Assembly (NCBI RefSeq): GCF_054482595.1
Contig: NZ_CM137008.1
Strand: one strand, 5' to 3'
DNA: 64,000 nt
Translations under genes and position numbers: made by a program
Notes under the pieces: model-generated
Seen by the model: only the letters and a program-made list of their open reading frames with translations
What the model was told of the DNA's origin: nothing
Databases searched by the model: none
Shown: positions 54,284-54,493 of the stretch, piece after piece
Layout of the letters: each line of letters starts with the position of its first letter
Position numbering within the stretch: position 1 is the first letter of the stretch

Positions 54284-54493
54284 TTAGTTAGAGTTAATTA
54301 GCTTATCAATCTCTGTAAGAGGTAAAGTTGTCACCTCTGCAACGTCTTCCCGAGACATCCCTTTACTTAGAAAACGCTGGGCGAATTCCTGTCTTACCTT
54401 CTGGAGTTCCTCTTGATATCCCTTCTGAAATCCCTTCTCTTCAAACCACTGCGCCAACGTCTGCCTGGTTTCTCTCCGTGTCTTTATTTCCAT
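54284..54493 (-). CDS. small free-standing ORF homologous to the C-terminal domain of Rpn (YhgA-like) proteins (RpnS-like)
   Basis: 69-aa ORF ..TLAQWFEEKG..KGMSREDVAEVTTLPLTEIDKLINSN aligns with the last 50 residues of the adjacent RpnC; about 87 percent nucleotide identity to the rpnC 3' end over roughly 105 bp; AAGGGA 5 nt upstream of ATG. Confidence 0.55.
   Translation of the reverse strand: MEIKTRRETRQTLAQWFEEKGFQKGYQEELQKVRQEFAQRFLSKGMSREDVAEVTTLPLTEIDKLINSN

Follow-up and report, generated by a model that had tools for sequence, protein, structure and literature searches.

rpnCSs, a free-standing copy of the rpnC tail in Escherichia coli: repeat mismatch with the neighbouring RpnC and recombination between the two copies

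The window (the whole 64,000-nucleotide stretch of contig NZ_CM137008.1 that we analysed) contains, in this order, panD, rpnC and rpnCSs, followed by panC and panB, which are encoded on the other strand. This region is 100% identical to E. coli strain CP53, whose annotation names rpnC. The rpnC gene encodes a nuclease of the Rpn family, and its PF04754 match spans model positions 1-201 of 203. Past its stop codon lies a small open reading frame that starts with ATG and runs for 69 codons. The first-pass annotation, which was made from the letters alone, had described this as a 69-codon minus-strand frame 68 bp downstream of the rpnC stop. Reading the coordinates of both genes directly (Table 1) bears this out, as both are on the minus strand and the distance from stop to ATG is exactly 68 bp. 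A Shine-Dalgarno-like AAGGGA had been placed 5 nt before the start; the hexamer is there, and the distance is really 4 nt (ACCT). It is kept in all aligned haplotypes but one (L023, from Escherichia sp. E4930), which carries AAGAGA. At every locus that we read, the protein begins M(E/D)I(K/T)(T/A)RRET(R/W)Q.

Table 1. Features of the rpnC-rpnCSs region, with positions in the window.
Feature	Position	Strand	Basis
rpnC, 290 aa, PD-(D/E)XK Rpn nuclease (RpnC-L, toxin)	54562..55434	-	PF04754, E=1.7e-87
Intragenic RpnC-S frame (MMTLAQWFEERGRQEERQEF...KLIN, 50 aa), preceded by GGGAGGGGAG	54562..54714	-	sequence reading; K-12 counterpart experimental (PMC10400941)
Duplicated block, copy A (rpnC 3' end)	54564..54709	-	repeat finder and local alignment
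Spacer from rpnC stop to rpnCSs ATG, 68 nt, AT-rich, internal repeat CCAGATAATT	54494..54561	-	sequence
Shine-Dalgarno-like AAGGGA, 4 nt before the rpnCSs ATG	54498..54503	-	sequence reading; putative ribosome-binding function
rpnCSs, free-standing 69-aa frame MEIKTRRETRQTLAQWFEEKGFQKGYQEELQKVRQEFAQRFLSKGMSREDVAEVTTLPLTEIDKLINSN	54284..54493	-	ORF list, identity to the RpnC tail, TIGR01784
Duplicated block, copy B (within rpnCSs)	54292..54461	-	repeat finder; local alignment with copy A (87% identical)
Zone of hypervariable four-residue repeats in RpnCSs helix 1, 24 residues KGFQKGYQEELQKVRQEFAQRFLS	54365..54436	-	locus comparison
Hairpin pair between the convergent stop codons of rpnCSs and panC	54193..54253	.	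terminator-like site on + strand

The product of the small frame had been said to resemble the C-terminus of RpnC, and it does. BLASTP aligns RpnCSs with RpnC residues 235-290 at 40/64 identical residues (63%, E=1e-21) with a single 8-residue gap. At the DNA level, a repeat finder returned two blocks, one pairing 54292-54403 with 54564-54675 (85% over 112 nt) and the other pairing 54411-54461 with 54659-54709 (80% over 51 nt). The optimal local alignment of 54461..54292 with 54709..54564 has 127 of its 146 ungapped columns identical (87%), and its gaps total 24 nt, which is two 12-nt repeat units. The direct repeat of about 87% that was first claimed is therefore real; the exact coordinates first given for it did not hold up, since the identity there is 82%, and the homology extends some 70 nt beyond them in the 5' direction. 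This resemblance to the rpnC tail is far beyond chance. The Rpn family model TIGR01784 also matches the product at positions 213-273 of its 273 (E=2.8e-8, which is below the cut-off for a whole protein). We are nearly certain that the frame is rpnCSs, a free-standing paralogue of the antitoxin-like C-terminal (RpnS) domain of RpnC, and its origin is a tandem duplication of part of rpnC, about 270 bp at the 3' end. The earlier suggestion of an extra, separately encoded copy of the RpnS type, made by partial tandem duplication, thus has the support of these alignments, of published work (Zhong et al. 2023, PNAS 120:e2307382120, PMC10400941) and of the same position and frame in E. coli, E. marmotae and another Escherichia lineage.

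The published work provides most of the background. Each of the five rpn genes of K-12 yields, besides the toxic full-length nuclease RpnL, a small protein that is made from an internal start. This protein, RpnS, blocks RpnL both in vivo and in vitro; for K-12 rpnC, the internal start and the RpnCS protein were demonstrated experimentally (PMC10400941). RpnL and RpnS share a tail with a long helix in which the number of four-residue repeats differs among strains. In RpnS, these hypervariable repeats start 8-20 residues past the start, within helix 1, and the last two helices were noted to be like a helix-turn-helix (PMC10400941). The same paper names rpnCSs in its section 'Varied Expression of Small Proteins' (Fig. 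2I), places RpnCSs in a phylogeny as derived from RpnC, reports ypaA (rpnESs) of K-12 as a parallel case whose protein, the analogue of RpnCSs, was detected with an SPA tag, and mentions fusions of the rpnC-rpnCSs type in general terms. Its main text holds neither a test of RpnCSs function or expression nor a comparison of repeat number with the neighbouring RpnC. We found no later paper on rpnCSs in the literature that we searched. The rpnCSs of the window is a correct rediscovery, and because the gene itself was published in 2023, this copy adds one more instance. A modest new angle is the repeat mismatch with the neighbouring gene together with recombination of the tail as a cassette. The annotation of the gene is also inconsistent among genomes and could be unified, as RefSeq/PGAP labels range over a pseudogene fragment 'missing N-terminus', 'transposase', 'hypothetical protein' and 'RpnC/YadD family protein'.

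We modelled RpnCSs with AlphaFold2 (40 homologues; pLDDT 74.7). The model has predicted helices at residues 6-43, 48-55 and 59-67, and this predicted layout of a long helix followed by two short ones is consistent with that of the RpnA-S structure. Foldseek did not find a significant match for the model in the PDB. RpnA-S (7th0) ranked 13th with TM-scores of 0.47/0.69 (0.69 when normalised by the target) and E=8.3, which is not significant, and these TM-scores were the highest among the 20 matches listed. Sequence and profile searches of the PDB with RpnCSs failed to reach RpnA-S. The top match was 8vd6, a 185-residue chain deposited as 'CAP REPEAT', which resembles the last two helices of RpnCSs only. 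Those helices resemble helix-turn-helix motifs, with a weak likeness in Pfam; no Pfam family scored above threshold for the frame, which returned weak helix-turn-helix-like and DUF matches only. DUF4351 (PF14261) did not match the frame, and the RpnC tail reached 14.4 bits against a cut-off of 25. Precomputed matches to HTH_Rpn_C (PF27070) exist for many close relatives of the frame and for P0052 and P0020, yet our Pfam scans returned PF27070 neither for the frame nor for these two proteins. PADLOC returned nothing for RpnC and a weak RmrA match (E=5e-4) for the small frame. What places RpnCSs in the RpnS family is its homology to the tail of a PF04754 nuclease, and its hypervariable repeat zone starts at residue 20, inside the predicted helix 6-43. 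The 'Ss' in its name fits a gene of its own directly downstream of the parent rpn, an arrangement shared by 1553 genomes. Going by the model and the RpnA-S structure, RpnCSs would be a three-helix protein of the RpnS type that dimerises through its long helix 1.

The spacer between the two genes is well conserved. Across 11 haplotypes it varies little (pi=0.029). The versions in E. marmotae and Escherichia sp. E4930 keep 91-96% identity, at an rpnC dS of 0.19-0.40. It is thus more conserved than the synonymous sites of rpnC, and it is possible that it contains a regulatory element. A promoter and terminator scan found neither kind of site within the 68 nt, the spacer RNA folds no better than shuffled sequences, and Rfam matched nothing in 53900-55800 at E<=1. 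The sole promoter-like match on the minus strand (54309-54281) is at the 3' end of rpnCSs, so it is irrelevant to the start of the gene, and we consider a promoter of its own for rpnCSs to be unsupported. Because the spacer has no detectable promoter or terminator, the likeliest expression route is read-through: rpnCSs is probably transcribed from rpnC or from the internal promoter of rpnC, and RpnCSs would be translated from its own ATG with AAGGGA as the ribosome-binding site.

There is some structural variation around the gene. The common 68-nt spacer holds CCAGATAATT twice, and at one locus (L026, 1558-1600) the spacer is 25 nt shorter, at 43 nt, and holds it once. Because of this single-copy form, the common spacer looks like the result of a 25-nt internal duplication or insertion. 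Downstream, between the two convergent stop codons, hairpin 1 is at 54236-54253 and hairpin 2 is a 12-bp stem at 54193-54223; the minus-strand RNA of both together folds with z=-3.1. The first is a perfect 7-bp hairpin just past the rpnCSs stop, created by a 14-nt insertion, GTCATCGCCATGAC. This insertion is polymorphic, being present in the window and in three other haplotypes (L005, L010 and L012) and absent from the rest. Strain 2017-02-2CC (L016, about 1590-1715) has an insertion of ~126 nt between the shared terminator stem and panC, which resembles an intergenic repeat of the ERIC/IRU type.

We then compared the repeat helices of the two genes. The variable zone was measured between WFEE and KGMSRE in both copies, across 20 distinct haplotypes. 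It is 20-36 residues long in RpnCSs, with changes mostly in steps of 4 and all in frame, and 16-56 residues long in RpnC. In the window, RpnC has a zone of 16 residues (RGRQEERQEFVLRLLN) and RpnCSs one of 24 (KGFQKGYQEELQKVRQEFAQRFLS), so the equal repeat number expected of a cognate antitoxin is not found here. The two lengths agree in one of the 20 haplotypes (L034, 36 and 36), and even there the repeats are unrelated (KGIE/KGME vs KAYQ/EVRQ). One and the same rpnCSs allele adjoins RpnC tails of 40 and 56 residues in E. marmotae, and another case of a single allele beside tails of different length (40 and 32) is found in E. coli. The repeat helix of RpnCSs evolves independently of the resident toxin tail, and the copy in the window is 8 residues longer and made of different units. 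K-12 YpaA likewise has one unit, KLEG, more than the RpnE tail, so the only RpnSs protein detected experimentally is also mismatched to its neighbour.

Three loci deserve separate mention. In the K-12 derivative MGY (rpnE-ypaA, L019:5682-6779), the 61-residue YpaA shares 75% identity with the RpnE tail and is one repeat longer. In O166:H15 JNE21-003 (L011, 1-1300), rpnC is destroyed by an insertion of the IS3 family and the rpnCSs frame is intact. In an Escherichia sp. (SRR6148326; L024, 1071-1532), rpnC is truncated to a 153-aa product, again with an intact rpnCSs frame.

The lengths matter because neutralisation is lost when a repeat is added to just one partner, RpnC-S or RpnC-LS, and is kept when both have it (PMC10400941, Fig. 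4D), a rule that comes from a single experiment with one inserted repeat in K-12 RpnC. Since this rule needs a matched repeat number, the downstream copies, taken at face value, are usually non-cognate. The first-pass annotation implied a simple antitoxin role for the adjacent RpnC, and this is not supported, as the repeat helix is not matched in length to the resident toxin.

It is still conceivable, though we consider it unlikely, that RpnCSs is a genuine second antitoxin that binds the tail of the adjacent RpnC-L, blocks the nuclease and uncouples the supply of antitoxin from translation of the toxin. RpnS proteins do block their own RpnL, a commentary that accompanied the published study suggested that second copies decouple toxin and antitoxin, and rpnCSs sits immediately downstream of rpnC across a terminator-free junction. 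The non-repeat parts of RpnCSs are 63% identical to the RpnC tail, with the WFEE and KGMSREDVAE motifs conserved, and the one haplotype with equal helix lengths would suit such a role. However, the helix lengths differ in the other 19 of the 20 haplotypes, the units differ as well (F/Y-containing KGFQ/KAYQ vs RQEV/KGIE), and a single added repeat was enough to abolish neutralisation in the published assay. In addition, rpnCSs is intact at the two loci where rpnC is destroyed or truncated, and an antitoxin without its toxin is not expected to be kept. Going by the published repeat rule, we infer that RpnCSs is most likely an insulated copy that is non-cognate to the adjacent RpnC-L and does not add to its antitoxin supply. 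This sharpens the question of whether repeat number sets the silencing of RpnL by RpnS: if it does, the downstream copies are mismatched in 19 of 20 haplotypes and in K-12 ypaA. Such copies should not silence their neighbours, and therefore either the matching rule is looser than the one experiment suggests or the copies have another role.

To survey the distribution of rpnCSs, we used the spacer plus the unique N-terminal part (54405-54561) as a probe against 5426 complete E. coli genomes and counted matches with a coverage of at least 80%. The probe matches 1553 of them (~29%), always on the chromosome, and rpnCSs sits between rpnC and panC in every carrier. The carriers include ATCC 25922, Nissle 1917 and O145:H28 RM12581. 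K-12 does not have rpnCSs, and its 300-aa rpnC leads straight to panC; the ribosome-profiling data derive from this strain. The order panD-rpnC-rpnCSs-panC is also found in E. marmotae and Escherichia sp. E4930. The frame and its ATG are intact at every locus read, and none of the 28 loci that have the gene carries a stop codon or frameshift.

The first-pass annotation had proposed comparing this interval for conservation and for purifying selection. The frame is open at all loci read. The non-repeat parts of rpnCSs have a dN/dS below 1 against other Escherichia lineages (0.22-0.63), and the excess of synonymous changes is significant in two of the four interspecies comparisons (Fisher p about 0.01) and not in the other two. 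Among E. coli alleles, dN/dS is 0.45 for the whole frame, 0.16 for its N-terminal part and 0.77 for its C-terminal part. The rpnC tail has values of about 0-0.35 between lineages and 0.40 among E. coli alleles, and the nuclease domain of rpnC has 0.03-0.05. In short, dN/dS for rpnCSs is moderately below 1. We do not count the in-frame length changes as evidence of selection because slippage by 12-nt units yields them automatically.

These figures leave some room, in our judgement a small amount, for rpnCSs being a functionless relic of the duplication. Its frame would then be open through youth in most lineages, through slippage by 12 nt that preserves the frame and through repair by gene conversion from the selected rpnC tail. 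The C-terminal dN/dS of 0.77, the two tests that were not significant, the evidence of gene conversion between the copies, the frequent PGAP call of a pseudogene fragment and the ~71% of E. coli genomes, K-12 included, that do without the gene are all consistent with this. However, the ATG, the MEIKTRRETRQ N-terminus and the spacer do not have a selected counterpart in rpnC, and yet they are conserved into E. marmotae and E4930, over a span in which rpnC synonymous sites have diverged by 0.19-0.40; the Shine-Dalgarno-like hexamer is conserved as well, save the one change in E4930. The 28 loci free of stop codons and frameshifts and the N-terminal dN/dS of 0.16 also argue against a relic, as does the fact that K-12 produces the analogous protein YpaA (PMC10400941). 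That rpnCSs is no gene at all, and simply a chance frame within an intergenic repeat, has its small size and the lack of a Pfam match above threshold in its favour and nothing else, and we effectively rule it out given the in-frame match to the RpnC tail at E=1e-21, the conservation of the frame across species and the prior publication of the gene.

The two copies also recombine. We built a synthetic junction, the predicted product of a deletion between the two TLAQWFEE repeats of the window haplotype, and searched for it in complete genomes. The junction of rpnC with the rpnCSs body was found in one piece, at 100% over 283 nt, in two genomes, the strains AHM8C212RI (NZ_CP104613.1, 367-1269; L036) and AHM8C160RI, which have the same allele. 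AHM8C212RI has a single 300-aa rpnC, followed directly by panC. Past TLAQWFEE, its rpnC tail is identical to the rpnCSs of the window (153/153 nt), the downstream flank is nearly so (94/95), and the nuclease part differs from that of the window at 18 of 750 nt. In two other complete genomes, R9 and SK1144, RpnCSs has a C-terminus of the RpnC type, ending EMANLPLAEIDKMIN. We came to the conclusion that deletion between the direct repeats fuses the rpnCSs body onto rpnC and that gene conversion between the rpnC tail and rpnCSs gives mosaic alleles, some of which come from metagenome assemblies.

Two contigs show further arrangements. One (ERZ27229452, 814 nt; L017) has two tandem small genes, a chimera of MEIK plus an RpnC-type tail and then rpnCSs, and the other (ERZ27293447, 1296 nt; L018) carries, where rpnCSs would be, a tail of the K-12 type. 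Neither was found in the 5426 complete E. coli genomes, and they may be rare variants or chimeras of metagenome assembly across the repeat. For this reason, we treat the three-copy array of the first contig (chimeric Ss, spacer, Ss) as a possible chimera, since no complete genome holds it in one piece, and we dropped the idea that K-12 rpnC is a demonstrable fusion product, keeping it as a possibility.

Taking these observations together, the reading that we prefer, with a probability of roughly 50%, is that rpnCSs is an expressed and insulated RpnS paralogue, non-cognate to the resident RpnC-L in the window strain, that serves through recombination as an alternative cassette for the tail and antitoxin. 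A single recombination event would turn the rpnCSs body into the tail of the toxin and, via the internal start, also into its matched antitoxin. Because recombination changes the toxin tail and the intragenic antitoxin together, such a cassette could let the locus switch specificity. A selected role as a cassette is our interpretation of the recombination products, which could also be accidental. We offer a wider version of this reading more tentatively: RpnSs copies such as rpnCSs and K-12 ypaA may be insulated, non-cognate tail cassettes that, recombining with the parent gene through deletion or conversion, swap the dimerisation helix and the intragenic antitoxin in one step. They would be a ready-made alternative specificity, and the expressed protein could meanwhile neutralise a foreign RpnC of matching length. 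If this is true, an anti-phage toxin-antitoxin pair would here have a simple system of cassette switching. The fusion allele in the two complete genomes provides a natural matched/mismatched toxin pair for the question of repeat matching.

Compared with known systems, the gene in the window differs in nothing of kind from the rpnCSs of Zhong et al. 2023 (PMC10400941). Like the classical type II toxin-antitoxin operons, rpnC-rpnCSs has a small, predicted helical protein with a helix-turn-helix-like C-terminus beside a toxic nuclease; here, the antitoxin-like gene follows the toxin gene instead of preceding it, and it is itself a paralogue of part of the toxin. The closest parallel is ypaA/rpnESs of K-12, which is also a free-standing duplicate of an Rpn tail right after its parent gene and is also mismatched in its repeats. 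The two are of independent origin (31% protein identity), the ypaA spacer is 12 nt as opposed to 68 nt, and YpaA starts at the equivalent of the internal start; in RpnCSs, the 11 N-terminal residues are new. Within rpnC itself, the intragenic RpnC-S has the same domain as RpnCSs, the same motifs (TLAQWFEE, KGMSREDVAE and EIDKLIN) and the same predicted layout of a long helix and two short ones. RpnC-S is identical by construction to the tail of the toxin and co-varies with it, having the same 16-residue variable zone in the window. RpnCSs, in contrast, is encoded by separate DNA and has another N-terminus, other repeat units, a helix length that is independent of the toxin, and two extra residues at the C-terminus.
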